From IMG/VR virus record IMGVR_UViG_3300025168_000066: a stretch of 64,000 bases of DNA, one strand, 5' to 3'. Source of the DNA: an uncultured virus (IMG/VR IMGVR_UViG_3300025168_000066) (Duplodnaviria; Heunggongvirae; Uroviricota; Caudoviricetes). The position numbers and the translations under genes are program-made. The notes beneath the pieces were generated by a model, which worked only from the letters and a program-made list of their open reading frames with translations, was not told the DNA's origin and did no database searches. Of the stretch, positions 8,075-64,000 are shown piece after piece. The first letter of the stretch is position 1, and each line of letters opens with the position of its first letter.

Positions 8075-8486
8075 ATCTAAAGTAAAGAACGCAAAGAAAA
8101 GTGAGTATGATGGCAAAAACTTTCAATCTAATTTAGAACTTTATTGTTATAAAGAACTTAAAAAGGCTGAAGTAGAAGTTGAATACGAAGAAACTACGTT
8201 CACAATCTTTGATGCATTAGTGTATCCTCAAGCATGTTATGAGGGAACAGCCAAAAAGCTTTACAATAAAGGAAGTAAGATTAGACCAATTACTTACACT
8301 CCTGACTTTGTAGATCCTAAAGGTAAATGGATTGTAGAAACAAAAGGCTATGCAAATGAGTCTTTTCCTTTAAGATGGAAATTATTTAAAAAACACCTTA
8401 AAGATAATGATCATCACTATGTTTTATTTATGCCTCGAAACAAGAAGCAGGTAGATGAAGTCGTAGAGCTAATCAAACAATTATAA
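8052..8486 (+). CDS. PD-(D/E)xK endonuclease, T7 endonuclease I / DUF1064-like
   Basis: FQSNLE, EYE, YTPDF, IVETKG. Confidence 0.8.
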   Translation: MAWKRRNRSKVKNAKKSEYDGKNFQSNLELYCYKELKKAEVEVEYEETTFTIFDALVYPQACYEGTAKKLYNKGSKIRPITYTPDFVDPKGKWIVETKGYANESFPLRWKLFKKHLKDNDHHYVLFMPRNKKQVDEVVELIKQL

Positions 8487-8487
8487 C

Positions 8488-8511
8488 AAGGGCCCTAACG
8501 GGCTCTTTTTT
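8488..8511 (+). terminator. Rho-independent terminator
   Basis: AAGGGCCC-TAAC-GGGCTCTT followed by a T run. Confidence 0.75.
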
Positions 8512-8532
8512 ATTAACTAAACATTTTAAATT

Positions 8533-8793
8533 ATGGGATACATGGTAAGTCCCTGCTGTGGGGAAAGTTACACAGATAATGATGACGGTACTAGCTATTG
8601 TTGTGATGCACCAATAGTAAATGGCATATGTCAAGATAGCAAATGCTTAGATCATGCAGAACCTTTAGAGGGATTTGTATGTGAGGCATGTGACGAATTC
8701 TTTGAAGAGTCTATTGAAGACTATGAGTACAAAAATCAAATGCTTGATGCTAAAGCAGAAGATAGGGCAGAAGCAGAGAGAGACGAAAGATAA
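8533..8793 (+). CDS. Small Cys-rich (zinc-binding) protein
   Basis: SPCC, SYCC, C..SKC..H and CEAC motifs; acidic tail. Confidence 0.65.
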   Translation: MGYMVSPCCGESYTDNDDGTSYCCDAPIVNGICQDSKCLDHAEPLEGFVCEACDEFFEESIEDYEYKNQMLDAKAEDRAEAERDER

Positions 8794-8823
8794 TAAAGTA
8801 TAAACCAATTAAACACAAATTTT

Positions 8824-11577
8824 ATGAGTATTAAAACAATTGACAAGCCAATATCGGGTGATGCCGGTATTGCTAAGCGCATCAATAAAGGCGCAGAAAA
8901 GATGGTATTTGACATTCTTCAATCTACACAGTATTCTATGCCAATTCAATCTACAATTAGAGAACTTGTTACCAATGCATGTGACTCTCAGCGTGAGAAA
9001 GAAATGGCACTAGAAATAGTAAGTGGTAAGAAGAAAGTTGAAGACTACTATATTGAGCGCCACGGTGATCAGTATGAAGATAGTAATTTTGATTCTAGTT
9101 ACTATCAGTTGTCTTCATTACAACATGGTAAAAACCATGTAGATTTATTATATACACAAAATGAAGGTGTTGGGTATTGTGACACATTTGCAGTAACTGA
9201 CTATGGTGTAGGTATAGGAGCAAGACGTTTAGAAGGTATATTAGAGCTGGGTTATTCTACGAAAAGAAATACCAGTGAGAACTTTGGTGCGTTTGGTCTT
9301 GGTGCAAAAGCTGCGCTATCAACCGGTGTAGATTTCTATACTATAGAGACTATATATAATGGTATGAGATTTAAATGTAACTGTTATAACTACAAGACTG
9401 ATTTTATTATACCAGCTTTTAATGTAAAAACAGGTATGCAGAATAAATTCATAACTTTTAGTGATGGTACTAAAGTATATTATGAGCATTCTGATCAAGT
9501 AAATCAAACTACTGTATCGTTTGGTGTAAAAAAACATAACAGAAATAAGTTTGAAGAAGCTATTGAAGAGCAGCTAATGTATTTTGATAACGTTAATTTT
9601 AAAATTAAAGATGAGTATAACGAAGAAAGAAATATTCCTTTTAAAGCAGAAGTTATTTATAATTCTGAAAATCTTATAGTTTCTGATTCTTATTATTTTA
9701 ATAAGCCTCATATTGTTCTTGTTAAAGACAAAGGATCATCAACCGGTATTAACTACGGCTATATTGATTTTCGTGAGTTAGAAATGGAACAAATGTATGG
9801 TTCTATTGCTTTTAAATGTCCTGCGCGTCAAGTTGTAGCTAATCCAGATGGCACAGAAACTATATTACAAGAGGGCGTAGATGTTACTCCATCTCGTGAG
9901 AAAGTTATATGGAACGAAGCAACTAAAAAATACATTAAAAGTGTAATAATGGCAGCAGCTCAAGAAGCTAGTGATATTATAGAACAAGAGTTGAAAGAAA
10001 CAGATTTTCTTAAATGGGTAGATGCTTGTAGATCTATTATTACTGGTAACAGTAGTGAAAATAGGATTCTTAATAAGCTAGCTCGTATTATTAATACTGA
10101 TGATATGAAACCTAAGTTTGGTCCTGACCCTAGAATTAAATATGGACCGGCTCTTAAATTATTTGAAGGTTTAACGCTTATGAAGCCTTATGAAGATAGA
10201 CATGGTGATGGTATAAAACGTGAAATAATTAAAGATTGGCAAGGTTTTAATGCTAAGCATTTTTATTCTAGAGAAGAAAAGTGGTCTAAGTATAAAGATT
10301 TATATCTTATGGAAGATAAAGAGTCTGGGCTGGGGTATCCCCATAAAGTTACTACTTATACTCTTGAAGATTTAGAAGATAAGTTTGATAATCTTTTACA
10401 AAAATGTGAGGGTAATATAGATGCTGTTCAAAAAGTAATGAAAGAAAAGAATAGAGTTACAGCTAAACGTACCGCTATACTTGCTCTTATTGAAAAATCT
10501 GAATGGTATAAATCTTACGATGATGTAGAAGTTCCTGAAGACTGGTTACAAGGACGTAAAGAGGAAGAAGAAGAAGAGGCAGAGAAATCTAAATTTTCTA
10601 ATCTAAGTGCTGCAGAGCGTAGAGACATAGAAAAGAGAATAGTTGCTTACACTTTTAGACATGATACAAAAAAAGATGATTATTTTACTTTAGATAAAAT
10701 AGAACCTAAAACTATTGATCTTATGAATAGTAAATATCGTACTTATTATTGTACTAAAGAAGATGAGGGTAAAATGAAACTAGCGGCTAAACTACTTAAA
10801 GCAACTCAGCCTAAACATAAAGATGTTTATCCTAACAGTTCTTGGAGTCATTGGGACGATAATGGAACAGGGTATAACAGTCCAATGTTTTGGTTTGATT
10901 GTCCTCCTGTTAGTTATACAAAATACGGATCTGACGAGTATGAACAGTGGGCTAAACCTGTACAAGGATGGTCTCATCCTCAGCTTATACGTGTTAGTGA
11001 AAGCAGAGTTAAGTTTATTACTAAAAACCCAAATGTTAAACACATTGACGAGCTATTTTTACAAACAAACGAGAAAAATGAATATATTATGGATAAGACA
11101 CTAATAAACTATTACACAGCTTATAAACTAGAAAAGATAAATGACTTTAAATTTATGCAAGGTTTAGGATGTATACATGAGGATTTACAAAAAGATTATT
11201 GTAAATTACAAGACATGAGAAATGAAAATTACAGTGAATTTGATAGGAGACATGTACATAATGTATCTCCAGCTATTACAAATCACATGGATAAATTATT
11301 TGAATTTCAAAAATTTTGTAATCAATCTGATGATGCAGATGCTATTAAAGCTAAGTCTAAACAATTATTTGTTTTATCTGACATTACTGATGCCAGGGCT
11401 GCAGATCTAGAACTTTTGGCAAAATATGACAATCTAGTAGAATTTGCAGAGGAAATTAAACCAATGTTAGATCAACTATCTTGCCTTGAAGAAAGAGATT
11501 GTAATATGTCTCCTGAACTTGAGAAAGAAGTTAGAATTTATTTACGAGCTAAAAGTCGAGAAACATGGGAAAGTTAA
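8824..11577 (+). CDS. rIIA: rIIA-like protein (N-terminal GHKL ATPase)
   Basis: IRELVTNACDS, DYGVG, STK, GAFGLGAK GHKL motifs; VTPSRE motif; paired with a downstream rIIB. Confidence 0.8.
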   Translation: MSIKTIDKPISGDAGIAKRINKGAEKMVFDILQSTQYSMPIQSTIRELVTNACDSQREKEMALEIVSGKKKVEDYYIERHGDQYEDSNFDSSYYQLSSLQHGKNHVDLLYTQNEGVGYCDTFAVTDYGVGIGARRLEGILELGYSTKRNTSENFGAFGLGAKAALSTGVDFYTIETIYNGMRFKCNCYNYKTDFIIPAFNVKTGMQNKFITFSDGTKVYYEHSDQVNQTTVSFGVKKHNRNKFEEAIEEQLMYFDNVNFKIKDEYNEERNIPFKAEVIYNSENLIVSDSYYFNKPHIVLVKDKGSSTGINYGYIDFRELEMEQMYGSIAFKCPARQVVANPDGTETILQEGVDVTPSREKVIWNEATKKYIKSVIMAAAQEASDIIEQELKETDFLKWVDACRSIITGNSSENRILNKLARIINTDDMKPKFGPDPRIKYGPALKLFEGLTLMKPYEDRHGDGIKREIIKDWQGFNAKHFYSREEKWSKYKDLYLMEDKESGLGYPHKVTTYTLEDLEDKFDNLLQKCEGNIDAVQKVMKEKNRVTAKRTAILALIEKSEWYKSYDDVEVPEDWLQGRKEEEEEEAEKSKFSNLSAAERRDIEKRIVAYTFRHDTKKDDYFTLDKIEPKTIDLMNSKYRTYYCTKEDEGKMKLAAKLLKATQPKHKDVYPNSSWSHWDDNGTGYNSPMFWFDCPPVSYTKYGSDEYEQWAKPVQGWSHPQLIRVSESRVKFITKNPNVKHIDELFLQTNEKNEYIMDKTLINYYTAYKLEKINDFKFMQGLGCIHEDLQKDYCKLQDMRNENYSEFDRRHVHNVSPAITNHMDKLFEFQKFCNQSDDADAIKAKSKQLFVLSDITDARAADLELLAKYDNLVEFAEEIKPMLDQLSCLEERDCNMSPELEKEVRIYLRAKSRETWES

Positions 11578-12428
11578 TAACTAAAGATATAAGGAAAACC
11601 TTTAAAATAAGGGCTTCTGGAAGATCTACTGATTTTATTTCTCCTAGTTTTGGTTATGGTTGTTTGTATAATTGTTCATACTGTTATATGAAACGCCATA
11701 AAGATAAAGGTTTGTCTGTAGCTACAAATACCGGTGATATATTGACTGAAGTTAATAATCATGCGTATTTTACACCTGTAGACAAACCTAATCAGACTCA
11801 CAAAACTTTTACAACTTATGATATTAGCTGCAACGAGGATTTTGCGTTGCATGCTAAGCATCATGAGTGGCAAAGGATTTTTGAATTTTTTCGTGATCAT
11901 CCTGTAGCTATGGGTAGTTTTGCAACTAAATATGTAAACCCTAACCTATGCAAGTTTGATCCTGAAGGAAAAATACGTATTAGATTTAGTCTAATGCCTC
12001 AACATAAATCAGATTTACACGAACCAGCAACAAGTAAAATCATCGATAGAATAAAAGCTATTGATGCGTTTATAGATGCAGGATATGATGTGCATGTAAA
12101 TTATAGTCCTATTATAGTATATGACGGGTGGTTAGAAGACTACAAGTATATATTTGATATGATGAATGATTATGTTAGTTACAAAGACCAAGTTTTATCA
12201 GAATGTATATTTTTAACTCATAATTTTAAGAAACATCTTGTAAACTTAGACAGACATCCAGAGACAGAAGTAGATCTGTGGGTTCTAGACAAGCAAGAAG
12301 TTAAACGTTCTCAATATGGGGGAGAAAATATAAGATACAAACTAGGAATGAAATCTGAATACATTAAACAATTCAGAAAATTACATGAAGCAACAATACC
12401 GTGGAATACAATACGGTATATTTTTTAA
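11565..12428 (+). CDS. splB: Spore photoproduct lyase-like radical SAM enzyme
   Basis: GCLYNCSYCY (CxxxCxxC with YCY), DISCNED, FATK, RIRFSL, RI.A....G.DV....SPII match the SPL family layout. Confidence 0.8.
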   Translation: MGKLITKDIRKTFKIRASGRSTDFISPSFGYGCLYNCSYCYMKRHKDKGLSVATNTGDILTEVNNHAYFTPVDKPNQTHKTFTTYDISCNEDFALHAKHHEWQRIFEFFRDHPVAMGSFATKYVNPNLCKFDPEGKIRIRFSLMPQHKSDLHEPATSKIIDRIKAIDAFIDAGYDVHVNYSPIIVYDGWLEDYKYIFDMMNDYVSYKDQVLSECIFLTHNFKKHLVNLDRHPETEVDLWVLDKQEVKRSQYGGENIRYKLGMKSEYIKQFRKLHEATIPWNTIRYIF

Positions 12429-12448
12429 CCAATTAAATTTTTTAAACT

Positions 12449-13615
12449 ATGATTACAATAAATGTAATAGACGACAAAATCTGTGGATCTTATGGGGATA
12501 CCCCATTCACAGTTGAGTATGAGAAAAACTTATACGATAGAATGCAACAGCTTAGCCATAAGGCTCAAGGTGTAAATACAGTAGAAGAATACAATGAAGT
12601 TATGGAGGAGTTTGCTCCCCTATGTGTTGTAGACTATACTAAAACCATTGAAACACAATGTGAGTACATTCATGTTAACAAGGCTACAGGAGAATTCTTC
12701 CTTAAGCATAACAGCGTAGTATCTAGTATACCTATGCCTCAAGCTTTAGTGGATAGAATATTTGACTCTTTAGATAAAGATCTAGACTTTATGCCTTTAA
12801 TTAAAATGTGGACTAGATGGTTGCGTAACCCAATCTTGTGGAGAAAAATGAAGCAAGGTCACGGGAACAATTTTTGTGAGAGATTCTTTAATTTTGTGAA
12901 TATGAAATATACTCACCCTAAAATGAAAGAAGATCTTATAGAGCAGGGTCTTACTGATGAAGCAGCTTCTAAAAGAGCAGAAATGTACCAAATGAAAATC
13001 ACCCATGAGGGATTACTAAATGGTTACAAAGTCTCTACAGAAGTGCTTCATAAGTATGACGCAGAAACTGGAGAAGAAGTTGATCGTTATAAAAGAACGT
13101 TTAACATTGATACCGGTGAGATAGAAGGTGGTGGATTACCAGAATTTGTAGAAGATAGGCTATTTCAACCCGCTATGATGGGAACAAGTGGAGATGCTTT
13201 CTTTTGTGAGGGGCCTAATGGCTTTGCTAATCCAGGACATTTTATTAAAGTTGGGTGTACTCATAGACTAGAATCATGGGACCAAATTAACGTGGATGAT
13301 AGACGTTCATGTGTTAAAGGTCTTCATATTGGTGGTCTAATGTACATTAATTGCTACAGTGGAGAAATTCACAATATTTTTGTAGATCCTATGCATATTG
13401 GCGCAGTGCCAGATGACTCAGACGGAGCTATAAGATGTAAGCAATATTTTGTTCATTCATCTTTATCAGGTGTGAATGGATCTATTTACCACAGCTCTAG
13501 CTATGCAGCTATGACAGACGCTGAATGGGATGACATGCGCTTAAAAGCAGTGCAAGAAAAGTCTGAACGTAAAGCTGAATGTGACAAGGAAGTTGCAGAG
13601 ATGAACGCTCTGTAG
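12449..13615 (+). CDS. rIIB: rIIB-like protein
   Basis: WLRNP, GLLNGYK, SCVKGLHIG, VDP..IGAVP.D....IRC typical of rIIB C-terminal domains; follows rIIA. Confidence 0.75.
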   Translation: MITINVIDDKICGSYGDTPFTVEYEKNLYDRMQQLSHKAQGVNTVEEYNEVMEEFAPLCVVDYTKTIETQCEYIHVNKATGEFFLKHNSVVSSIPMPQALVDRIFDSLDKDLDFMPLIKMWTRWLRNPILWRKMKQGHGNNFCERFFNFVNMKYTHPKMKEDLIEQGLTDEAASKRAEMYQMKITHEGLLNGYKVSTEVLHKYDAETGEEVDRYKRTFNIDTGEIEGGGLPEFVEDRLFQPAMMGTSGDAFFCEGPNGFANPGHFIKVGCTHRLESWDQINVDDRRSCVKGLHIGGLMYINCYSGEIHNIFVDPMHIGAVPDDSDGAIRCKQYFVHSSLSGVNGSIYHSSSYAAMTDAEWDDMRLKAVQEKSERKAECDKEVAEMNAL

Positions 13616-13633: not shown

Positions 13634-13735
13634 GATATGAGGGGGTAGACGAACGGCGTTTTGCCAACCAACTTTAACCGGGAGTATAAGAGCTTCCTGT
13701 TTTTAATTAGATTTTATATCTACCCCCTTTATATC
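13634..13735 (+). ncRNA. Putative structured intergenic RNA element 3
   Basis: Stem GATATGAGGGGGTAGA (13634-13649) / TCTACCCCCTTTATATC (13719-13735) enclosing two hairpins (GGCG-TTT-TGCC; GGGAGT-ATAAGA-GCTTCC). Confidence 0.5.
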
Positions 13736-13756
13736 AATAACCCTAAATTTTAAAAT

Positions 13757-14509
13757 ATGAATAGAGATGAAAAAATAGCTTTAATAGATGGTGATAGTCT
13801 TATATACTATGAGATGAGTAAACCTACACTAGAAGAAGCTTTAGATGGCATAGACATGAGAATTACTCAAATGCTAAATATAACAGGATGTACACATTAC
13901 GCAGGTTTTCTAACACAAGGTAAATGCTTTAGATATAACATAGCAACTACAAAACCATATAAATACAACAGAAAACGAGGTAATAAACCAATTATATTTC
14001 CAGCAATTAAAGAATATTTAAAACAAAAATGGAATTTTACATACATTCCTGAATTAGAAGCAGATGACTTAGTTTCTGTATATCATGACCCTTTAAAGAC
14101 TGTAATATGCAGTCCAGATAAAGACGTGTTGTATCAAAATAAAGTATCTAATTATAATTATGGTAAAGCAGAATTTGCTACTGTAGATGAAAATGAATCC
14201 CTACGTTTCTTATGGAAACAAGTACTAATGGGAGACTCTACAGATGGTATTACTGGTATCCCTAAAGTAGGTCCTAAAACTGCAGATACATGGTTAGAAA
14301 ACATGCTACCTGTAGAAATGCCTACATTTGTATTAAATAAATATATAGAAAAGTTTGGAAATTCTGAAGGAATTCATAGATTTACAGAAACCTTTAAACT
14401 TATTTACATACTAAAAACTAAAAAAGATGTACTAAGAGAAACCGGTATAGAATTGCCAGAGCTTGAAGTACATAAAGTTGAACTTTTAAATCAAGAAGAA
14501 TTATGGTAA
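13757..14509 (+). CDS. 5'-3' exonuclease / flap endonuclease (T7 gp6, T4 RNase H-like)
   Basis: LIDGD, YKYNR, EADD, SPDKD, GDSTDGITGIPKVGPKTA (H3TH). Confidence 0.9.
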   Translation: MNRDEKIALIDGDSLIYYEMSKPTLEEALDGIDMRITQMLNITGCTHYAGFLTQGKCFRYNIATTKPYKYNRKRGNKPIIFPAIKEYLKQKWNFTYIPELEADDLVSVYHDPLKTVICSPDKDVLYQNKVSNYNYGKAEFATVDENESLRFLWKQVLMGDSTDGITGIPKVGPKTADTWLENMLPVEMPTFVLNKYIEKFGNSEGIHRFTETFKLIYILKTKKDVLRETGIELPELEVHKVELLNQEELW

Positions 14510-15279
14510 CACAATGCGATGAATTAGTATATACTCCTGTAAATGCATTAACATTTAAAATTACAGGTAATACTTTATGCTTAAAACCTGTGTATAATGA
14601 TAAAAAACACATAATTGCATTGAAAGGCCCTGAAGATATTCTTATTGATTTAGGTTTAACCGTATTAGTTAGAAAATTAAAATACAAAGTTAATATTATA
14701 GAGAGGATTCCTAACGAGATTCTCTCTATATCTAACAAAGTAGAATATCATATATCTATGGCTAAAAGAACTAAAGCTTCTACATTTCTTATGCCTATGC
14801 TTCCTGGAACTAAAAAACTTTATTTTTGGAATAAACTATTTATAAATTGTTTTATAGGAACAGATGAAGATACTAGATGTATTGCTTTACTTTTTAGATG
14901 GTCTTCAGATTTAAGATTTATTAAGTTTGAAAAATTACTTTCTACGTTTAAAATGTTTAAGAGAAGATATGATCCAAATCCACATCTTGTAATGTTTATA
15001 TTTGATATACCTAAAGGTTATGCAAAAGATTACAGAGCATTTATAGCGGGGAAGTATTCTAAGATGTCACGAGAATATAAAATAGATATTTTAGATTTTC
15101 ATGATGCTGATATACAAGACGAAATAGGACAAATAATATTTAAAAGCAGTAAACGTAAAGACTTGCTAGAAGAAAAGTTGGGAGCTGTACTACCAGAAGG
15201 ATCAGAATTACTAAGCATTTTAGATATTAAAAAAGAAACATATAATCCTAAAATTTATGAACTAAAAAAATTATTATGA
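14503..15279 (+). CDS. Hypothetical protein
   Basis: 258-aa ORF overlapping both neighbours. Confidence 0.7.
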   Translation: MVTQCDELVYTPVNALTFKITGNTLCLKPVYNDKKHIIALKGPEDILIDLGLTVLVRKLKYKVNIIERIPNEILSISNKVEYHISMAKRTKASTFLMPMLPGTKKLYFWNKLFINCFIGTDEDTRCIALLFRWSSDLRFIKFEKLLSTFKMFKRRYDPNPHLVMFIFDIPKGYAKDYRAFIAGKYSKMSREYKIDILDFHDADIQDEIGQIIFKSSKRKDLLEEKLGAVLPEGSELLSILDIKKETYNPKIYELKKLL

Positions 15280-45300: not shown

Positions 45301-45693
45301 TTATTTTTTTACTTTTTCTAGTGATCTACCACCAAAGTATGCTCCAATAACTGTTATTAAAACTAACTGTAATAAATCTACCCATGAAGATTTAACTTCA
45401 AAAGAAATAACTCCAGCATCTATAAATACTAATAATACTGTTGATACTACTAAGAATATTAAAACTAATGGTCTTATATTTTTTGATAACCAAGAGTCAG
45501 ATTGCATGTCCATCTTCCATCTTTCAGTGACTTGCTTTTGCATTTCTGCTTCGTACCCCATGATCATATCTTTTATTTTTTTCTCTGCTTCAAGCTTTTC
45601 TTCTTTTGATGTGTGTAAATTATCTACAACTCCACCTATTCCTTTAATTAATTCTGTAGCTCCGCTACTAAATATTTTTGTTATTATACTCAT
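45301..45693 (-). CDS. Holin (3TM GTA-holin-like)
   Basis: RW.MDM.SDSWLSKNIRP followed by two TM helices and YFGGRS.EK. Confidence 0.8.
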   Translation of the reverse strand: MSIITKIFSSGATELIKGIGGVVDNLHTSKEEKLEAEKKIKDMIMGYEAEMQKQVTERWKMDMQSDSWLSKNIRPLVLIFLVVSTVLLVFIDAGVISFEVKSSWVDLLQLVLITVIGAYFGGRSLEKVKK

Positions 45694-52616: not shown

Positions 52617-53078
52617 TTAATCTAAATCTATATATTGTATTGTTACCCCTTCATTTTTTACTGCTTCTGCTATAAGCGGGTAAACTCTCTTATATGCATT
52701 ACTTGAATTTCCTATAAAACCATTTTTATTTACTTGGTTATTTTCTTGACTATCACCCAAAAGTAAACAGCCTGCAGTGTGCTCATCAGTATTGCCAACA
52801 TGAATGAGAATCCACTTAAAATTAGGTACATCAATAATATGCAACATACCCCTATGGATATTAGGATACTTTTTGCTGTACTTTTCATGAAATCCTCCTT
52901 CATTTCTTAGTTTTATATTATACGTTCCTGCAGGTATTCTAGTTTCTGTTCTAATTTTTTCATCTCTATGTTCATCTTCTAAAGTATATGCTAAAAACTT
53001 TATACCATCTGTAGCATCTAGTAATAATCCATTAGTAGAGTCAGACTCACTACTGAATCTTAATACTTGTAATTTCAT
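52617..53078 (-). CDS. DUF5675 family protein, probable endolysin
   Basis: YTLED, IPAGTY, ILIHVGN...TAGCLLLG. Start at MKLQVLR (track start 53117). Confidence 0.75.
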   Translation of the reverse strand: MKLQVLRFSSESDSTNGLLLDATDGIKFLAYTLEDEHRDEKIRTETRIPAGTYNIKLRNEGGFHEKYSKKYPNIHRGMLHIIDVPNFKWILIHVGNTDEHTAGCLLLGDSQENNQVNKNGFIGNSSNAYKRVYPLIAEAVKNEGVTIQYIDLD

Positions 53079-53080
53079 AT

Positions 53081-53443
53081 TTATGCTTTTTTCCAGTACG
53101 CGTATTCTACTGCACAAGTATTAGTATCTGCTCTAGCTTCTAATCCTGCCCCATCGTTTACAGCGAAGAAAGTAAATTCTCCAGGACCTACTCTAGCGTA
53201 TTGAACACTAGCTGTAGTTTGAAGAATAACAAAATTTGTTGGGTCTAAATTTTTAAAGTAAAAATAGAATACTCCACTTGTCCCTTCGTCTACTAATTCT
53301 TGGTTATCAGATGTTGTTATAGCTACTCTAGATAATCCTACACTAGGAGTAGTTGTTGATACAGTATTTGTTACAGTAACATTTAAAGAATCGCTTGAAA
53401 TATTGCTACTAGATAATGTTAATTTTGCTGTTAATGTTGCCAT
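53081..53443 (-). CDS. Small beta-rich structural protein
   Basis: YFKNLD...PGEF.FF...A...VEY pattern; Ser/Thr-rich N-terminus. Confidence 0.55.
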   Translation of the reverse strand: MATLTAKLTLSSSNISSDSLNVTVTNTVSTTTPSVGLSRVAITTSDNQELVDEGTSGVFYFYFKNLDPTNFVILQTTASVQYARVGPGEFTFFAVNDGAGLEARADTNTCAVEYAYWKKA

Positions 53444-53448
53444 GTTTT

Positions 53449-55812
53449 TTAATTTTTTATTATTATTTTTCTATTTACGCTTCCATCATTATATATATAA
53501 AATAGAAGCTGATTTTTAATTTTAGTTACAGGTCTACCTAATAAATCTGTAACTTGTATTAAATTTTTATCTGTCCTTTTAGGTAAAGGTCCTGACCAAT
53601 TATCACCGCAATGATTATATGTTAGTTGGCATATTTCATCCCACTCGTTTTCACAACAATAATTATCTACTTCTATTACCCAAGCATAACATTCATCATT
53701 TAAGAAAAAAGGATTACCAGATCCATTTATACACCAATCTGCTGCGTATAAACAACCTAATGAATCATGTCCTAAAATTACGTTAGCAAACGGATTATAG
53801 TTAAAAGCATCTGCATCCATGCATCCAACAATCGCTTCAATACATGAGCCATTATCTGTGTTAGCGAGTGAATCAAAATTAATAGCCAAAGGATCAGTGC
53901 ACCCATAAATATAAGGAATACAACTAAAATCTTCAGTATTAGCCATTGGATTATAGTTGATACTATTAGGATTAGTACAACCATATATAAAAGGAATACA
54001 AGATCCATTATCAACATTAGCTAAAGAATTAAAATTAAACATTGTACTGTCTGTACATCCATATAGTATTTCTATACAGCTACCATCATTTGTGTTGCAT
54101 GTGTCACAATAGTTAAATTGTGTAGGATTTATACACCCATATATTACAGGTACGCAAGAATTATCATCTACATTAGCATTAGGATTCCAATTAAAAGCTA
54201 ATGTATCAGTACATCCATACACTACCCCTATACAACTACCATCATCTATATTTGCTAATGAATCGTAATTAAGAGCTAATTGGCTCATACATCCATAAAC
54301 TATAGCAATACATGTATCTGCAGTGTTAGCATTTGGATTATAATTAAATGCTAAAGGCTGCATACATCCAGTTACAATTGCTATACAAGAACCATTAAGT
54401 TCAGTGTTTGCTAATGGATTGTAATTAAAAGCTAAACTGTCCATACATCCTAATACTACTAAAGTGCTGCATGATCCGTCGTCATAGTCATAATTACTAT
54501 TATATTCTAAATATACAGGGTTAGTACACCCTGGATTATAATAACAACTAACATCATCTGTATTAGCTAAGCTATCATAATTAATTGCTGTTGGATATGT
54601 ACACCCATAAACTATTTCTATACATTCATTACCACAATTTGTTATTAAAGGGTACATTAAACTTGGTGTAATAAAAGGAGGCATAATACTAATTAAAGTA
54701 TCTCCGTCTGGATTAATCATAGTAAATCCACATTCTATTGTTGTAAATTGTGCTAAAGGATCTATATTAAATACAAAAGCTATTGGATCTGGTGCTGTTA
54801 TACCTACTTGATATTGATCAACAAATCCACCAGTGTGTGTAAAATCATAAAATGTGTCAGGTAACAATAATCTTAAATTAGATCCTACCCAACCATTACC
54901 CATAAGATCATGTAGTATAAGAGTAAACTCACAAGTATCTACCATGTCCATTGTATTAGCTAATGGATCAAAGTTATACATTGTTGTATCTGTACATCCA
55001 AATACTTTTAGTGTAACACAACTACTATCATCAACAGTAGCCCAATAGTTAAATTCTAAATAATCATTATCTGTACACCCTAATATAGGTGGGCATGAGT
55101 CAGAAACAAAAGAGTGTGTACTATCAAGCCCAAAAGCTGGGTCTGTACCATATATTAGTGTATCATTACATTGCTTTACAAAATAAGAGCCATCGTTACC
55201 TTGCCACAAAGAGCCTTGTAATCCGTCTCCATATATATCATTAATTGTAAAAAATAAAGGTCCTTTAGGTATCCAAACTGTTTCTTCTATAGTAGAATAA
55301 ATAGGTTGTGTGCCATATCCTGATCCTGATGCGTGTACAGTACCATTTGAATCTGATATATTCCAAGAAGTTTCTGAAGGATATTGATCTAAGTTAATTA
55401 TAACTTTAGCAGATACTAATTGTGGTGGTGCTGGTGGTGGACATGGATATATTGTTACAGTAGTATCTCTTTGAAAAAATGAACCTACTACAGGATTCCA
55501 ATCTATTATAAGCCCTTGACATGTATTACCCATTCTAAAAGAAGCTGGTTGAGATGACATCCATCCGTCTCCAAAACTATCTCTTAAACTTATAGTATAA
55601 CTACCACTATTAATAGCTAGAATAGTATCTAAGTATTCATACTGAGTAGTTGGTTGAAAAAACATAGAAGTATCTCCATAAGCATTAGACACCATAAAAA
55701 AGTTAGACTCTGTTGGTGCATAGAAATCAAATTGCACTTCAAATCTAACCCAAGAATCTTGACTAAGTAATACCGTTGGTAATAATAATAATACTAATAA
55801 TAACTTTTTCAT
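53449..55812 (-). CDS. Exported Cys-repeat protein with T9SS-like C-terminal sorting domain
   Basis: Signal peptide MKKLLLVLLLLPTVLLS|Q; three D..G(D/N)G(W/L) beta-domains; 13 GC(T/M/I)...N(Y/F).P.AN.DDGSC-type repeats; C-terminus LIQVTDLLGRP...LFYIYNDGSVNRKII. Confidence 0.75.
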   Translation of the reverse strand: MKKLLLVLLLLPTVLLSQDSWVRFEVQFDFYAPTESNFFMVSNAYGDTSMFFQPTTQYEYLDTILAINSGSYTISLRDSFGDGWMSSQPASFRMGNTCQGLIIDWNPVVGSFFQRDTTVTIYPCPPPAPPQLVSAKVIINLDQYPSETSWNISDSNGTVHASGSGYGTQPIYSTIEETVWIPKGPLFFTINDIYGDGLQGSLWQGNDGSYFVKQCNDTLIYGTDPAFGLDSTHSFVSDSCPPILGCTDNDYLEFNYWATVDDSSCVTLKVFGCTDTTMYNFDPLANTMDMVDTCEFTLILHDLMGNGWVGSNLRLLLPDTFYDFTHTGGFVDQYQVGITAPDPIAFVFNIDPLAQFTTIECGFTMINPDGDTLISIMPPFITPSLMYPLITNCGNECIEIVYGCTYPTAINYDSLANTDDVSCYYNPGCTNPVYLEYNSNYDYDDGSCSTLVVLGCMDSLAFNYNPLANTELNGSCIAIVTGCMQPLAFNYNPNANTADTCIAIVYGCMSQLALNYDSLANIDDGSCIGVVYGCTDTLAFNWNPNANVDDNSCVPVIYGCINPTQFNYCDTCNTNDGSCIEILYGCTDSTMFNFNSLANVDNGSCIPFIYGCTNPNSINYNPMANTEDFSCIPYIYGCTDPLAINFDSLANTDNGSCIEAIVGCMDADAFNYNPFANVILGHDSLGCLYAADWCINGSGNPFFLNDECYAWVIEVDNYCCENEWDEICQLTYNHCGDNWSGPLPKRTDKNLIQVTDLLGRPVTKIKNQLLFYIYNDGSVNRKIIIKN

Positions 55813-55949
55813 TTAATTTTAAATTTATTGTCTACCCAACATTTATAATAATACAATCCCATTATTAAACCAACAGCTATTGCGCCATCAATCCAATTAG
55901 CTAATTCTTTATAGCCTTGTTTTTGCCATATGTCTCCTAATACTTCCAT
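55809..55949 (-). CDS. Small membrane protein (46 aa; not in ORF track)
   Basis: MEVLGDIWQKQGYKELANWIDGAIAVGLIMGLYYYKCWVDNKFKIK*; TAATG and ATGA overlaps on both sides; one TM helix. Confidence 0.65.
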   Translation of the reverse strand: MEVLGDIWQKQGYKELANWIDGAIAVGLIMGLYYYKCWVDNKFKIK

Positions 55950-56308
55950 TAAAAATCTGACATTATTTCTTCATTAATAATATTTTGTAGCTCTTTTCTA
56001 GTTGCAAGCATTTTAAAACTAAGATCTGCTTGAAATCTTTTTATTTCTTCTCCGTCTTTAAAAATAATAATAGTAGGTACTATAACTATTTTATGTTTTT
56101 GTTGCAGTTTTATTTCTTTTGTTATATCAACTTTTGCAATGTCACAATCAGATAATTTTACTAGCCATTCAACTTGATTTGCATTATTCCATTCTGCATT
56201 AAATTCTGTAACAACTATTTGTGAACTTACTGTACCCGCCCACATTACAAAAAGTACTATAAGCAAATAAATACTAAATACTTTCCAAGTTGTTTCTGTG
56301 TTTTCCAT
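55949..56308 (-). CDS. Exported thioredoxin-fold protein lacking CxxC
   Basis: Signal/TM ending VSS|Q; VVTEFNAEWNNAN in place of F.A.WC..C; KVDI, VPTIIIFKDGEE (cis-Pro loop). Confidence 0.7.
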   Translation of the reverse strand: MENTETTWKVFSIYLLIVLFVMWAGTVSSQIVVTEFNAEWNNANQVEWLVKLSDCDIAKVDITKEIKLQQKHKIVIVPTIIIFKDGEEIKRFQADLSFKMLATRKELQNIINEEIMSDF

Positions 56309-56589
56309 TATCTGTTATATAATTTGTCTTCTATTTTTTCTATTGCTTTTAATATTTCTTCTACATCTTTCTGTGTAGTCATAATTGTATTACGAATCAT
56401 TTGATCTTTCATATCAAACTCCATTCTTGTTACATCAGGTGGTGGAGGTTGAGGAAGTTTTTTTGCTTCGTTTATATCTGCTTGCAATGTAAACCACATA
56501 CCAACTAAGGTAGCTATTAAGAAGGCTACTCCTCCTAATGTCTTTAGGCTTAATTGTACTGCTGTATTTTCGCTTAATTCCTTTGCCAT
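56308..56589 (-). CDS. Single-TM coiled-coil protein
   Basis: TM helix LGGVAFLIATLVGMWF, Pro-rich linker PQPPPP, C-terminal heptads. Confidence 0.65.
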   Translation of the reverse strand: MAKELSENTAVQLSLKTLGGVAFLIATLVGMWFTLQADINEAKKLPQPPPPDVTRMEFDMKDQMIRNTIMTTQKDVEEILKAIEKIEDKLYNR

Positions 56590-56759
56590 TATAATTCAAA
56601 TCCTAAATTACAAACCATTAGTCTAAATCTTTTTGCTGTACAGTTGTCATCACAAAATAAACATGCTTTTACTTCTAATATAGTAAAAGTACCAAGCCTA
56701 ATATTTAATTCATATTTTTGTTTTTTATTCCCTGCTGAAAATCCATTTATCCAATTCAT
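56589..56759 (-). CDS. Small Cys-containing protein (56 aa; not in ORF track)
   Basis: MNWINGFSAGNKKQKYELNIRLGTFTILEVKACLFCDDNCTAKRFRLMVCNLGFEL*; overlaps both neighbours by 1-4 nt. Confidence 0.6.
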   Translation of the reverse strand: MNWINGFSAGNKKQKYELNIRLGTFTILEVKACLFCDDNCTAKRFRLMVCNLGFEL

Positions 56760-56848
56760 TTTATTTCTGTTTTTAGTGTTTTACTTGAATGAGAACCATC
56801 ACAGTTTCCATCTTTGTCTTTTGTTTTACCACATGCACATTTATTCAT
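56756..56848 (-). CDS. Minimal CDGSH iron-sulfur (NEET-type) peptide (30 aa; not in ORF track)
   Basis: MNKCACGKTKDKDGNCDGSHSSKTLKTEIK*: C-x-C-x2-T...C-D-G-S-H; A-rich leader; ATGA overlap with the next ORF. Confidence 0.75.
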   Translation of the reverse strand: MNKCACGKTKDKDGNCDGSHSSKTLKTEIK

Positions 56849-56858
56849 TTTTTTGTTT

Positions 56859-57911
56859 TTAAAATATTATATAATTAATTCCAAATTTAAAGTCGTACCA
56901 TTCTCTGTTCCAATACTTATTATATTTACCTTCTATAAAAGCACCTAAACTTTTAGTGTATTTATATCCAAAAATTAATCCTCCACTATAATCTAACCAT
57001 TGACCATTATTATACTCGTGATATGAAAAATCATTTTTTAAATCTAAATGATAAGGCATTAAATTTGTCCATGTATGTACCCAAAAATTCTTTTTATAAT
57101 AATAATAATCAAGCCCTACTACAACTGAGTGTTGTATTGTTTTATCTAATTCGTCTCTTTTTCTTTCTGAATAATTAGCTAATATTTGTGGAATTACTAC
57201 TTCTTCCCATACTTCTTTACTTGTTGCAACTACATTTCCATTAGGATCATTATATATATTTTCAAATACATCTACATTATATCCTTCTGTTATAGCTAAA
57301 TACGTATAATGTAAACTACCATTACTTAACATCCATTCTTCTAAAGGATCATATCCATAAGGTTCAGATAATCTTTGAGCTAATCCTGCATTAAAAGAAA
57401 ACTTTCTATTTACTTTATATCTATATCTTTCTGATGTTTCAAAGTATTTAATATCAGCAAATCCATCTTCTAAGTATTCACCTTTTAATATATAGTTATT
57501 ATCTACATATCTAATAAAATGATGTTGATCTAAATATTCAATACCTTGTTGTCTTTTATAATCTACTTCAAATAAAAATTCTAACCCTTGTACTTTACCT
57601 ATATTAGCTCCATCTGACCAACTAGTTTCTGTACCGTCATAAAATGTTTGTGCTTTATTTTCATAACCAAATCTAGCTATTTTTCTTATACCTAAAGCTA
57701 AATTATAATCATAAGGAGTTTTAACTGTTACAGTTTCTAAACCATTAGCAACAGAAAACACATCTACATCTGATATAGAATTACCACCATTAGCAGCAAC
57801 ATAAAATGTAGAAAACTTTAATATTTTTTTAAAGTCAATTTGAGCACAACATTTTTTAGGTGTTACACACCCTACTAATGTAATCAATATTATAACTAAT
57901 ACTTTTTTCAT
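56859..57911 (-). CDS. Putative outer-membrane beta-barrel protein
   Basis: Signal peptide from MKKVLVIILITLVGC...CCA|Q (track start 57947); alternating aromatic beta-strands; C-terminal beta-signal YDFKFGINYIIF. Confidence 0.7.
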   Translation of the reverse strand: MKKVLVIILITLVGCVTPKKCCAQIDFKKILKFSTFYVAANGGNSISDVDVFSVANGLETVTVKTPYDYNLALGIRKIARFGYENKAQTFYDGTETSWSDGANIGKVQGLEFLFEVDYKRQQGIEYLDQHHFIRYVDNNYILKGEYLEDGFADIKYFETSERYRYKVNRKFSFNAGLAQRLSEPYGYDPLEEWMLSNGSLHYTYLAITEGYNVDVFENIYNDPNGNVVATSKEVWEEVVIPQILANYSERKRDELDKTIQHSVVVGLDYYYYKKNFWVHTWTNLMPYHLDLKNDFSYHEYNNGQWLDYSGGLIFGYKYTKSLGAFIEGKYNKYWNREWYDFKFGINYIIF

Positions 57912-60945: not shown

Positions 60946-63900
60946 TTATATTTCTAATCCGTTAATTCCATCTATTGGTAATCCTCCTCTTTTAGTTTTA
61001 TTTTGATTAACAGCTCTAGAAGTTTGGATTACATCGTCATTTACAATATTACAATCTACACAAAAGCTAGTTACAAATGTATTAAATTTATCTAAATAAT
61101 TGATATTATTATGAAACGAAGTTATTTGAGCGTTTGATACACACTGTTGCCAATGTCCAGATTTTGCTCCTTGTGATGTTTCTGGATTCCAACATCCATT
61201 TGTACAAGAAACAGGAGCTGGTGTTACTTCATAAATTAATCCACTTGGCATTTTAATTACATCTCCTGAAAATAATATTGTTGATGGTACAAAAAATAAA
61301 GCTGGATTTGTTATTGTAGTTCCTTGACCTGTTGTTATACTAGATCCTGGAGCACCTTGATCGTTTAATCCTGTTGAAGGTCCTCCTGTTACCCAGTTAG
61401 TATTACAAGTAGGAAGATTACTTGCTGTTGAGTTTGTTCCACTATCAGCACAATTGTAAATACAACTACTTCCTCTTTTACTTACAAGATATTCTATTAA
61501 TAATACTTTCCAAGAATTTAATACAGAACAGTCATCTGCTTGCCCTGTAACTAGTTTATTGTAATATCTAAATCCATTTTTAGCTACACAAGCTTGTAAT
61601 AAATCTATTAAATCATTTGTGTTAGCAGGAATACAAGGATTTGCTATAACTGGGTATACACATGATCCATCATCTGTAGATGCGTTTGGATTAAAATTTA
61701 ATGCGTTTGGATCTGTACAACCTGGATATAAACAAGACCCATCATCTAATACTGCAGTTGGATCAAAGTTTGTTGCATTAGGATCTGTACAACCACAATT
61801 TGCAGCATTACTTCCTATTGAAAAATTTACTGTCTCTTCACACCCGTAGTTATCTGTAATTGTAAAGTAATAAACTCCTGGTAAAAACAATGAGTATGTA
61901 TATGTGTTAAAATGATTAGGAGAATTAGCATTACTATGTACTGTTGGGTCTGCATATATTAATACTCCTGCATTAGTGTAATATGAAATAGTTTTACTTT
62001 GACCTGCCATTATTCCTTGTTGGAAAAATGTAGTAACTGTTATACTTCCATCAGGATTTGATCCTCCACAATTACCTGTAGCATCTGTAGTTACAAAAGT
62101 ACTTGGAGTTCCTTGATTTTGTTGACTACATGGATAAAAACAACATCCATCATCTATTGTTGCTACTACTGTTTGATTTGCACAATTTTTATTGTAGTTA
62201 TGTGCAGTAGGATCAGTACAACCTAAAACTCCATATATACATGAACCATCGTCTATAGTAGCTGCAGGATTATAATTTGAAGCAGTTGGGTCAGTACATC
62301 CATAAATTGGAGCAGTACATGAACCATCATCACAAGTAGCTAATGGATTATAGTTAGTAGCTAAAGGATCCATACATCCGTAAATACAAAATATACAAGA
62401 ACCGTCATCACAAGTTGCAGCAGGATTATAGTTTAAAGCTAAAGAATCTGTACAGCCATAAATTGCACTAGTAATAGTAATAATAGCACTAGTTACTGTA
62501 CAAGTACCTGCACCAATATAATCTGATGTTAATGTTACTCTGTAGTTTCCATCATCGATAAAACTAGTTGGATTAATAAAAGAAGATTGTGTGTAAGTGT
62601 GCGTATGAGTTGGTGATGTTGGAGTTAAACTGTTTGTGTTTATTACTACCCAATTAGTACCATCAAAATATTCTAAATCCCATCTTATAAAAGCAGGTTG
62701 TGGAGTACAGTTAATGCTTGTTACTATCTGATTAATATTACATAATCCTGCATTTGGATTTGTTAAAACAGGGGGATCACAACAAAAATTATTTATTACT
62801 GAACAAAGAGATGGATTTGGATGCCATAATCTAGGATCTGTAATAACTAATGTACCAGGAGGATTATTTGTATCTGTAACAGCTGTTGCAAAATTACCAC
62901 TTTGATCTACACATACTTCAATTGGTATTATAAAATAAAATACTTGGAAACAATCTTCTACTTCTACTACAGCATCTGGATCACTAACTGCAACTTGTAC
63001 AGCAAAATATCCATAGTTTAAATTTGCTCCAGTAGTAGTTGTATTAAATGTAGTTGTCCATCCTAAATTATTATTATTAAGAGCTGCAGCATGTGCTGTA
63101 AAATTAGTTAAATCATTTGGAATAAGACTACTTTGAGCATTATCCCAATCAATCATACTATTTGCTTCAAAAAGTCTTAAAGTAAAATCTACATTAACAA
63201 CTCCACTAGAATTAACAATATCATTTACATAATTTTGAAAATTTAAAGTTGGGGATACATTTTGTATTAGTACAGATCCATCATTAGAATTTGTTCTTTG
63301 TGTAGGTGTTGCAACAAATGAATTTACCCCAGCTACTGCTATATCTCCAGCAGTAGGAATAACATTACCACTAGAATCAATTAAAGTTCCATTAGATGCA
63401 TGACAATATTCACATGAACCATCATCTATAACTGCATTTGCATTATAATTTAAAGCTACTCCACCATTTGTATTTGCAGTATTATCTGTACATCCTATAG
63501 CTCCTACTCCATCTTGAACACAAACATCTATTGAATCAAAACAAGGTGTTGTTGTTCCTGATGCATTTGCACTTTCATCATACACATATATTCTATAACA
63601 TCCTGCTACTAATCCAGTACTAAACGCTCCATTAACTGTACTTGCAGGAACTAATATATTTGTATTACCTCCAACTGTTACATTTAAAGCATTACTACCA
63701 GCAAATGCTGTATTTTGAGGAGTTGTTACATTGTCTTGAGCTAAATTAATTCCAAACCCATATGTAAAAGTTCCTCCTCCTGCCCCAGTATTACTTCCTC
63801 CTGGAAGACCACTTACACCACAAACTACAGTTCCTGAGCCTAAACCTCCAATAGTTTGACCATTTAAAGCTTGAATAACATATGTGTATTTTGCATTTCC

Positions 63901-63999
63901 TGTAAGATTTCCAAGACTATCATATAAAGTAACTTGTATTGATCCATCAGTTCCTCCTAAAGTACTTGCGTGATTAACAAAATCTAAACTTAAAGTTAA
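60946..63999 (-). CDS. Large virion-module protein with SprB-like and Cys-rich GCTD repeats (5' end beyond window)
   Basis: The frame stays open from the track's GTG (63585) to the window end (…HASTLGGTDGSIQV…GLVAGCYRIYVYD); DGSITV…PGVYYFTITDNYGC; seven GC(T/M)D..A.N(Y/F).P.A..DDGSC-type repeats. Confidence 0.75.
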   Translation of the reverse strand, partial: LTLSLDFVNHASTLGGTDGSIQVTLYDSLGNLTGNAKYTYVIQALNGQTIGGLGSGTVVCGVSGLPGGSNTGAGGGTFTYGFGINLAQDNVTTPQNTAFAGSNALNVTVGGNTNILVPASTVNGAFSTGLVAGCYRIYVYDESANASGTTTPCFDSIDVCVQDGVGAIGCTDNTANTNGGVALNYNANAVIDDGSCEYCHASNGTLIDSSGNVIPTAGDIAVAGVNSFVATPTQRTNSNDGSVLIQNVSPTLNFQNYVNDIVNSSGVVNVDFTLRLFEANSMIDWDNAQSSLIPNDLTNFTAHAAALNNNNLGWTTTFNTTTTGANLNYGYFAVQVAVSDPDAVVEVEDCFQVFYFIIPIEVCVDQSGNFATAVTDTNNPPGTLVITDPRLWHPNPSLCSVINNFCCDPPVLTNPNAGLCNINQIVTSINCTPQPAFIRWDLEYFDGTNWVVINTNSLTPTSPTHTHTYTQSSFINPTSFIDDGNYRVTLTSDYIGAGTCTVTSAIITITSAIYGCTDSLALNYNPAATCDDGSCIFCIYGCMDPLATNYNPLATCDDGSCTAPIYGCTDPTASNYNPAATIDDGSCIYGVLGCTDPTAHNYNKNCANQTVVATIDDGCCFYPCSQQNQGTPSTFVTTDATGNCGGSNPDGSITVTTFFQQGIMAGQSKTISYYTNAGVLIYADPTVHSNANSPNHFNTYTYSLFLPGVYYFTITDNYGCEETVNFSIGSNAANCGCTDPNATNFDPTAVLDDGSCLYPGCTDPNALNFNPNASTDDGSCVYPVIANPCIPANTNDLIDLLQACVAKNGFRYYNKLVTGQADDCSVLNSWKVLLIEYLVSKRGSSCIYNCADSGTNSTASNLPTCNTNWVTGGPSTGLNDQGAPGSSITTGQGTTITNPALFFVPSTILFSGDVIKMPSGLIYEVTPAPVSCTNGCWNPETSQGAKSGHWQQCVSNAQITSFHNNINYLDKFNTFVTSFCVDCNIVNDDVIQTSRAVNQNKTKRGGLPIDGINGLEI

Positions 64000-64000
64000 A

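Follow-up and report, generated by a model that had tools for sequence, protein, structure and literature searches.

The window analysed here, a stretch of 64,000 nucleotides (nt), belongs to a viral contig of 74,007 bases (IMG/VR record IMGVR_UViG_3300025168_000066), which ring and muzzle proteins found in a Pfam search mark as crAss-like. In its minus-strand late region, between a gene with a LamG domain on one side and a gene for a DUF5675 protein (probable endolysin) on the other, lies a stretch of seven open reading frames (ORFs), which encode a predicted outer-membrane beta-barrel, a CDGSH-like peptide, a Cys peptide, a transmembrane coiled-coil protein (TMCC), an exported thioredoxin-fold protein, a micro membrane protein, and a large cargo protein with a putative type IX secretion system (T9SS) tag (Table 1). 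Four of these genes (barrel, TMCC, thioredoxin and cargo) constitute a real, widespread and apparently undescribed envelope module, to which the three peptides are accessory; the architecture of the module is well supported, and its mechanism is what we infer from it. Export leaders, the predicted barrel and the predicted membrane helix agree with the proposal of a first-pass annotation, made from the sequence alone, that these proteins are targeted to the envelope.

Table 1. ORFs of the envelope module and lysis genes in its neighbourhood (positions in the window)
Feature	Length	Position	Strand	Role	Profile match
Predicted outer-membrane beta-barrel	350 aa	56859..57911	-	core	
CDGSH-like peptide	30 aa	56756..56848	-	accessory	
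Cys peptide (NWIN...NLGFEL)	56 aa	56589..56759	-	accessory	
TMCC	93 aa	56308..56589	-	core	
Exported thioredoxin-fold protein	119 aa	55949..56308	-	core	Pfam Thioredoxin 7.6e-7
Micro membrane protein	46 aa	55809..55949	-	accessory	
T9SS-tagged cargo (predicted)	787 aa	53449..55812	-	core, variable	
DUF5675 protein, probable endolysin		52617..53078	-	neighbour	Pfam 1.1e-26
Holin, 3TM type		45301..45693	-	neighbour	PHROG 3427 holin 1.5e-31; Pfam GTA_holin_3TM 6e-4

On re-reading the sequence, the seven consecutive minus-strand ORFs were found as first annotated, with junctions of +10, -4, -1, -1, -1 and -4 nt in order. Tight spacing is not special to the cassette, since 20 of the late region's 33 other junctions likewise do not exceed 10 nt; overlaps, in turn, are denser within it (5/6 junctions vs. 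6/33 elsewhere in the late region). There is no excess of promoters or terminators at the cassette borders, where such sites occur at chance level. Short contigs from four RNA runs (two studies) cover parts of the region, and one of 270 nt spans the TMCC-thioredoxin junction with zero differences, although such contigs are no proof of transcription.

Conservation was analysed in 260 loci, most of which had been retrieved with the barrel or the thioredoxin; together with the window's region they fell into 211 groups; 125 groups with flanks shorter than 4 kb were set aside, leaving 86 well-flanked loci. The barrel is present in all 86, TMCC and the thioredoxin in 83 each, and a tagged cargo in 81, i.e. 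the synteny expected by the first-pass annotation is conserved across marine viral contigs. Its other suggestion, that all seven genes form one system, had to be rejected, because only the four core genes travel together and the Cys peptide, the CDGSH-like peptide and the micro membrane protein co-occur with them in just 26, 5 and 1 of the 86 loci, respectively. Among the five loci without a tag, four represent a lipoprotein clade and the fifth has a cut-off ortholog. The TMCC and thioredoxin genes lie at most 30 nt apart in 182 of 188 cases.

The gene order is permuted among loci and other genes are inserted freely. In the three loci that lack the TMCC-thioredoxin pair, and on two more split contigs, the thioredoxin is located elsewhere on the contig (5/5), so that five contigs separate it from barrel and cargo, which stay adjacent where the operon splits. 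Barrel and thioredoxin distances correlate weakly within the close clade (Spearman 0.31, 60 rows), with 0.74 over all 92 rows. This pattern is what one would expect of two loose units, namely TMCC and thioredoxin as a small lysis accessory pair, and barrel and cargo as another pair unrelated to it, with a hot spot for insertions among the late genes common to both. We consider such an arrangement quite improbable: no well-flanked barrel locus is without a thioredoxin on its contig (83 nearby, 3 elsewhere), with barrels as low as 32-37% identical across the compared loci, and the terminal Phe typical of the thioredoxin is lost in a genome (G011) where the barrel is absent. The locus L046 has a barrel gene on either side of a single module (8001-9101 and 13735-14811), a possible intermediate of order permutation.

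The distribution of the module is viral. A chromosomal system of Flavobacteriales, the comparison put forward in the first-pass annotation, was rejected, as only 8 loci were recovered among 185,579 species genomes, all on contigs of metagenome-assembled genomes (MAGs); by ORF reading, 7 of them have a viral appearance, and the remaining one is a match of 40 residues where a contig ends. The thioredoxin profile matched 2 of 301 genomes of the order, in one case on a phage contig already known and in the other at a contig start. Neither barrel nor thioredoxin has a tblastn match among 50,697 deposited phage records, and a neighbour-anchored search with a 136-aa gene returned 6 loci only. IMG/VR contains about 630 stretches with the thioredoxin pattern and 477 (of 477) with the barrel pattern. 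Among 5846 candidates the barrel family has 3705 clusters, and 50% clustering gives 393 representatives of it; the TMCC family comprises at least 8000 clusters. The carriers include crAss-like genomes as well as others without the window's ring protein. Several barrel-bearing phage-like contigs (L081, L082, L083, L086, L087) were binned to MAGs of Parvibaculum, Nitrosopelagicus, Rickettsiales and Maricaulis; the assignment to such unrelated taxa is likely an error of binning.

From the alignment, TMCC is predicted to have a short N-terminus, to cross the membrane with one helix and to continue after a Pro linker as a long amphipathic helix, and the AlphaFold2 (AF2) model shows helices at residues 15-44 and 55-91 (predicted local distance difference test, pLDDT, 67). 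No named relative was found in Pfam, PDB profile or viral fold searches, only one weak match to a PHROG of unknown function (0.0013). The predicted layout, an N-terminal membrane anchor with a helical periplasmic part, is that of an i-spanin, and it is generic. In one subfamily (L089:8099-8776, L094:9948-10634 and, judged by length, also L090-L093) the N-terminus of TMCC is fused to a tandem motif resembling the cyclic di-GMP (c-di-GMP)-binding MshEN (PilF 1.9e-7, MshE 0.009), which suggests regulation better than mechanical fusion of membranes. The carriers of this fusion are large phages, in which the barrel leader is without Gln, the cargo is a Cys-rich lipoprotein, and a gene with an MscS beta-domain lies upstream; L089 has in addition a second small barrel-like ORF (10366-10926). 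Another small gene, often located just 5' of TMCC or of the holin in other loci (54/211 groups, e.g. L167:8559-8795 and L120:9793-10005) and missing from the window's contig, encodes a two-helix membrane protein of 70-80 aa (..FKDNNDWNEK..).

The thioredoxin fold of the TMCC partner, described in the first-pass annotation as devoid of CxxC, is well borne out by Pfam (29.5 bits vs. the cut-off of 23.5) and by a PDB profile (3.3e-9). The window's protein has WNNAN instead of WCxxC, and the pattern W-N-x-x-N is invariant in a 92-row alignment; among 206 sequences, 185 have NxxN and only 3 CxxC, and while a single Cys is usual (142), 16 have none. Phe is the last or next to last residue in 205 of the 206. 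The layout of the pair, i.e. a predicted single-pass membrane protein and an exported periplasmic partner encoded by coupled genes, corresponds to that of T4-type holin/antiholin pairs.

The accessory peptides are of different kinds. The CDGSH-like peptide (13/211 groups) has no leader and reads CxCxxTx6CDGSH, while the CDGSH consensus is CxCxx(S/T)xxxPxCDG(S/A/T)H with three Cys and one His as ligands. Thus, all ligands of the presumed Fe-S peptide are present, but the spacer is longer by one residue and without Pro, the window's peptide has no match in Pfam, and two relatives reach 11-12 bits, under the cut-off of 29.5. The Cys peptide, also without a leader, is found in 62 of the 211 groups, at variable positions within the same late region, and has no family match in Pfam or PHROG. 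The micro membrane protein is confined to the closest relatives (3 of the 211 groups including the window, which is also the only one of the well-flanked loci to have it). Against L259 the Cys peptide shows 40 differences, 26 of them at third positions, and the micro ORF shows 19 against L010, 11 of them at third positions, a substitution pattern that supports their being coding; for the CDGSH-like peptide, compared among close relatives, it is less clear (6/13). A leaderless thermonuclease-like gene is often inserted in the module (e.g. L001:9053-9412, L245:7345-7713, L259:11569-11922).

The suggestion of iron or redox handling by the CDGSH-like peptide and the thioredoxin could draw on the 3Cys-1His motif of the former, on the single Cys kept by most thioredoxins, and on the 41 Cys of the cargo, which need oxidative folding. 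We regard it as highly improbable in view of the near-complete loss of CxxC, the 16 thioredoxins devoid of Cys, and the rarity of a CDGSH-like peptide that is itself leaderless.

The AF2 model of the barrel, calculated from a 78-row alignment, consists of 12 long strands and one hairpin (pLDDT 71.8). Foldseek matched it to NanC/KdgM/FapF/EspP (probability 1.0 to NanC and KdgM), which together with the leader in the sequence agrees with the annotated exported outer-membrane beta-barrel at the level of prediction. VIA comparisons gave Z of 10-11 and root-mean-square deviation (rmsd) of 4-5 to TamA, Tsx, OmpG and NanC; the fold matches include autotransporter barrels, with about 10% identity, and none of them stands out. 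The sole close structural match is an unnamed viral protein (A0A516LKJ4). No named family was found in Pfam, PHROG, NCBIfam, PDB sequence search or Atlas, although the absence of a fold match does not exclude kinship. The T9SS barrel PorV (chain 6h3i_F) ranks 17, below unrelated barrels (Z 8.9, rmsd 5.2, 180 aligned residues), and no match in Pfam or NCBIfam ties the module barrel to PorV or PorP/SprF.

Two regions of the barrel deserve attention. A large helical loop covers about residues 183-257. Residues 74-111 lie within the most conserved stretch, are largely disordered in the model (the poorly modelled segment spans 78-108) and are placed on the periplasmic side by strand counting, and for these reasons we infer that they form a putative partner-binding site. 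Recognition by the beta-barrel assembly machinery had been ascribed to a C-terminal Phe strand; the last Phe varies, but the last strand fits the beta-signal motif G-x-x-aromatic-x-hydrophobic, with G344 and N346 invariant and Y347 conserved in at least 90% of 92 rows. The leader holds a lipobox (LVG↓C) ahead of CCA↓Q. Among 191 distinct barrel leaders, 68 combine a lipobox with CCxQ, 116 have neither and 7 only one, and the same lipobox/Gln type is found on three cargo proteins and one thioredoxin. Because of this recurrence and the conservation of the Gln, cleavage before Gln is likely, and lipidation of the barrel is possible. The rule that Gln follows each leader thus holds for Q24 and Q30, conserved at 90% or more, but the processing of the barrel is ambiguous on account of its lipobox.

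The 787-aa cargo has an export leader (LLS↓Q), three DxxGDG-type segments and 41 Cys; a disulfide-type repeat, GCxDxxAxNY...C, is matched ten times by pattern. The protein has no PDB or clear Atlas match. A loose leader pattern (small residue plus Q), counted without a shuffled control, occurs in 60/62, 21/23 and 72/72 cargo sequences. Its annotation as a T9SS substrate stands as far as the leader with Gln and the orthologs are concerned, 8 of 11 chosen ones passing the TIGR04183 cut-off at the tag position, but the window's own tag is a short variant that matches neither TIGR04183 nor the Pfam sorting domain PF18962. In a Flavobacteriales MAG of low GC, this short tag is matched at 8 places, with cellular-looking neighbours in 4 of 4 inspected, and one such host-like protein is also without a Pfam match. 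We therefore take it as a T9SS-type sorting tag and a pointer to the host group; export by T9SS is a prediction. In a distant clade the cargo slot is occupied by a Cys-domain protein of 150-270 aa with another short tag, and in a third clade (L089, L094) by a Cys-rich lipoprotein.

Several genes are connected with the cargo by position or sequence. A beta-rich 120-aa gene (window 53081-53443) has relatives that in many loci follow the cargo as 1-4 tandem paralogs. An upstream gene of 1514 aa (window 60946-64000, genome 60946-65490), with 54 Cys and no leader, shares the cargo's GCTD repeat, found five times there, and its product is likely part of the virion, as a fibre or for decoration; G011 has a frame of 2842 codons in which this Cys repeat is present too.

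As for lysis genes, a holin or endolysin is present within 6 kb in 60 of the 86 loci, within 3 kb of a core gene in 59, and within 60 nt in 25. In the window, the holin of the three-transmembrane (3TM) type lies 7.8 kb beyond the probable endolysin, whose DUF5675 domain we take to be an L,D-carboxypeptidase; the gene position matches that of the L,D-carboxypeptidase annotated in cr56_1. Since counts from the barrel side are biased by the query, 160 further loci were fetched by the window's endolysin and holin. They reveal a nested series, which rests on few genomes whose completeness is an estimate. In two 33-kb genomes, G016 (99% complete) and G017 (95%), TMCC stands directly 5' of holin and endolysin, and no thioredoxin, barrel, tag or lipobox ORF was found. 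In the genome G011 (84.5 kb, 98% complete), TMCC and thioredoxin precede endolysin and holin; it has no barrel, cargo or lipobox ORF, and the thioredoxin is its only ORF with a predicted export leader and the sole one of the 206 without the terminal Phe. In G012 (62% complete) barrel, TMCC, thioredoxin and holin abut and are followed by the endolysin, with no cargo found. The dependence thus runs from the inside outward, from TMCC to thioredoxin, barrel and cargo: in well-flanked loci the thioredoxin was never seen without TMCC, nor the barrel without a thioredoxin on its contig. Lysis clusters without the module (L294:9221-9882, L316:9343-10004, L346:1939-2483) contain two or three other small genes with a membrane helix and a coiled coil, before the endolysin or after the holin.

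The first-pass annotation also considered an unusual outer-membrane lysis step. In this scenario TMCC would act as i-spanin, and thioredoxin and barrel would replace the o-spanin lipoprotein, so as to fuse inner and outer membrane. The modelled layout of TMCC (membrane helix and two helices with a Pro linker) is compatible with it, as are the lipobox with CCxQ in 68 of the barrel leaders and the position of TMCC in G006 and G007, where it follows an M15 endolysin that overlaps its start; periplasmic lengths of 62 to 300 residues are reported for spanins (PMC6139136). Furthermore, a lipobox heuristic identified no credible lipobox ORF outside the module in the complete carriers G006, G007 and G010, and no credible i-spanin-like ORF besides TMCC in their late regions. 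On the window's 74-kb contig the sole lipobox ORF is the barrel, and no o-spanin lipoprotein gene lies beside TMCC. The heuristic (table 11 only) found one lipoprotein in Fpv3 and is unvalidated on a known spanin; a control on cr56_1, a TAG=Q genome scanned with table 11, was uninformative. The missing spanins are, however, unspecific, because the same heuristic detects no o-spanin beside the lysis genes of the module-less phi14:2 and Fpv3 either. Replacement of spanins as a conclusion by exclusion is unsupported, as these two phages and most of the 160 lysis-anchored loci are without either. Membrane fusion is weakened by G011, G016 and G017, in which TMCC, with or without thioredoxin, occurs in the absence of any outer-membrane partner; in addition, 116 barrel leaders have neither lipobox nor CCxQ, and fusion needs neither a cargo nor a c-di-GMP-like motif. 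We therefore consider this scenario rather unlikely. In phi14:2, gp087 (L282:18812-19390), a protein of 192 aa encoded right after the endolysin, carries a membrane helix at its N-terminus and is beta-rich towards its end (...GGSIKF); it is possibly a one-gene spanin of reversed topology.

We tentatively favour an interpretation, somewhat short of probable, in which the four core genes build one envelope-spanning chain that controls lysis in the manner of the T4 holin/antiholin pair and reaches the surface. TMCC would be a one-helix lysis protein, either a partner of the holin or a second holin, as suggested by the small phages in which it immediately precedes holin and endolysin with no other module gene. 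The thioredoxin would be its non-catalytic periplasmic ligand, in the role of T4 RI. Among the weakest steps, the terminal Phe of the thioredoxin might dock on the conserved periplasmic segment of the barrel, the cargo might leave by the host T9SS and be held or sensed by the outer loop of the barrel, and an outside cue (a further phage, a surface, a substrate) might shift the time of lysis via the cargo. TMCC behaves as a gene of the lysis cluster by itself, and the dependence of thioredoxin on TMCC and of barrel on thioredoxin is in keeping with a physical chain whose root lies on the side of the holin. A more ambitious version, which we hold to be unlikely, is a four-layer signalling chain of ocean Bacteroidota phages, composed of a swappable T9SS surface sensor, a phage-only barrel, dead thioredoxin and holin-side protein, with c-di-GMP input in one lineage; burst would be set by surface contact, and the chain would have been built stepwise from the inside and be common to unrelated phage groups.

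A number of observations weigh against lysis control by such a chain. The module is dispensable for lysis, since only 20 of the 160 lysis-anchored loci, many of them short, show a barrel, and in 27 of the 86 well-flanked loci no modelled lysis gene lies within 3 kb. For TMCC, the Pfam, PHROG, PDB profile and viral fold searches gave no link in sequence or fold with T4 T or with any holin, the MshEN-like motif lacks the Arg that opens RLG and is unmatched in Pfam, and the argument from the Phe tail comes from one genome. The split contigs and the weak correlation of distances in the close clade, described above, count here as well. Late envelope genes may also cluster with lysis genes merely for late expression. 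Finally, the linkage of the cargo (81/86) is tighter than that of lysis genes, and this leads to the main rival: surface remodelling independent of lysis, in which the barrel would anchor or shuttle the T9SS cargo, and TMCC and thioredoxin would tether or assemble it, the result being adhesion to particles or to new hosts, masking of receptors, or exclusion of other phages. It accounts for the adjacency of barrel and cargo even in split operons and for a cargo that varies (repeat protein, Cys-domain protein, lipoprotein) while the trio is constant, and competition or superinfection effects have been proposed for the variable T9SS cargo of Cryophage (PMC7468147). Nevertheless, it explains neither TMCC, alone or with thioredoxin, in the lysis clusters of near-complete genomes without barrel and cargo, nor the run of trio, holin and endolysin without cargo; the genes belong to the late structural region, and the barrel is not specifically near PorV. 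We regard surface remodelling as conceivable but on the unlikely side, and the receptor masking or exclusion suggested at the outset as a possible effect that leaves the same persistence of TMCC and thioredoxin unexplained.

Among viral contigs from the ocean the module is common, and its protein families are without annotation. We found no description of it in the open-access literature, a search outside which lie supplements whose genome tables could hold the genes. Environment-dependent timing of lysis is described for a few phages of enteric and Vibrio hosts. If lysis control by the proposed chain is true, a timing of lysis wired to the surface in marine Bacteroidota phages would bear on burst size and carbon release. 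As nature offers versions with one, two, three and four of the genes, the mechanism lends itself to dissection gene by gene. Under the rival explanations too, the module would represent a new phage use of the type IX system or a new way of opening the outer membrane. Elsewhere in the window (8824-13615), rIIA-like and rIIB-like genes flank a radical SAM gene similar to spore photoproduct lyase.

Comparison with known systems reveals partial similarities to several of them. The barrel shares its fold with 12-strand barrels such as NanC/KdgM, Tsx, FapF and autotransporter domains, but with about 10% identity, a TM-score of 0.3 and a large helical loop unique to it. CrAss-like phages of Cellulophaga also encode an outer-membrane protein, e.g. 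phi14:2 one with an OmpA domain. T9SS type A cargo encoded by a phage is known in Cryophage (Bellas et al. 2020, PMC7468147), where likewise phage genes carry host T9SS sorting domains and the cargo is the variable part; there, however, the cargo consists of glycanases and a PA14 protein, and the passages of that report available to us mention no barrel, thioredoxin or membrane partner. The mycobacteriophage protein LysF1b resembles TMCC, by description, as a small one-helix membrane protein whose gene is accompanied by another holin-like one and which is required for the timing of lysis (PMC13056207), but it is predicted as N-out/C-in and its host has no such envelope, while TMCC is likely N-in/C-out. 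The lambda Rz/Rz1 spanins have in common with TMCC a membrane anchor and two helices with a linker, encoded beside the endolysin (PMC6139136); unlike them, the module includes no o-spanin lipoprotein, TMCC occurs in near-complete genomes without an outer-membrane partner, and thioredoxin, barrel and cargo are extra. The T4 T/RI pair, which mediates lysis inhibition (PMC8385771), comprises a membrane protein with a small cytoplasmic N-terminus and a periplasmic C-terminus and a periplasmic partner (PMC11413866). As predicted for TMCC and thioredoxin, it combines a single-pass inner-membrane protein with a periplasmic partner that has a cleavable leader, in the context of lysis. TMCC differs from T in the lack of detected sequence or fold similarity and in its periplasmic part, a helix of about 58 aa, and the module differs from the T4 pair in its dead thioredoxin partner, its separate holin, and the addition of a barrel and a surface cargo.

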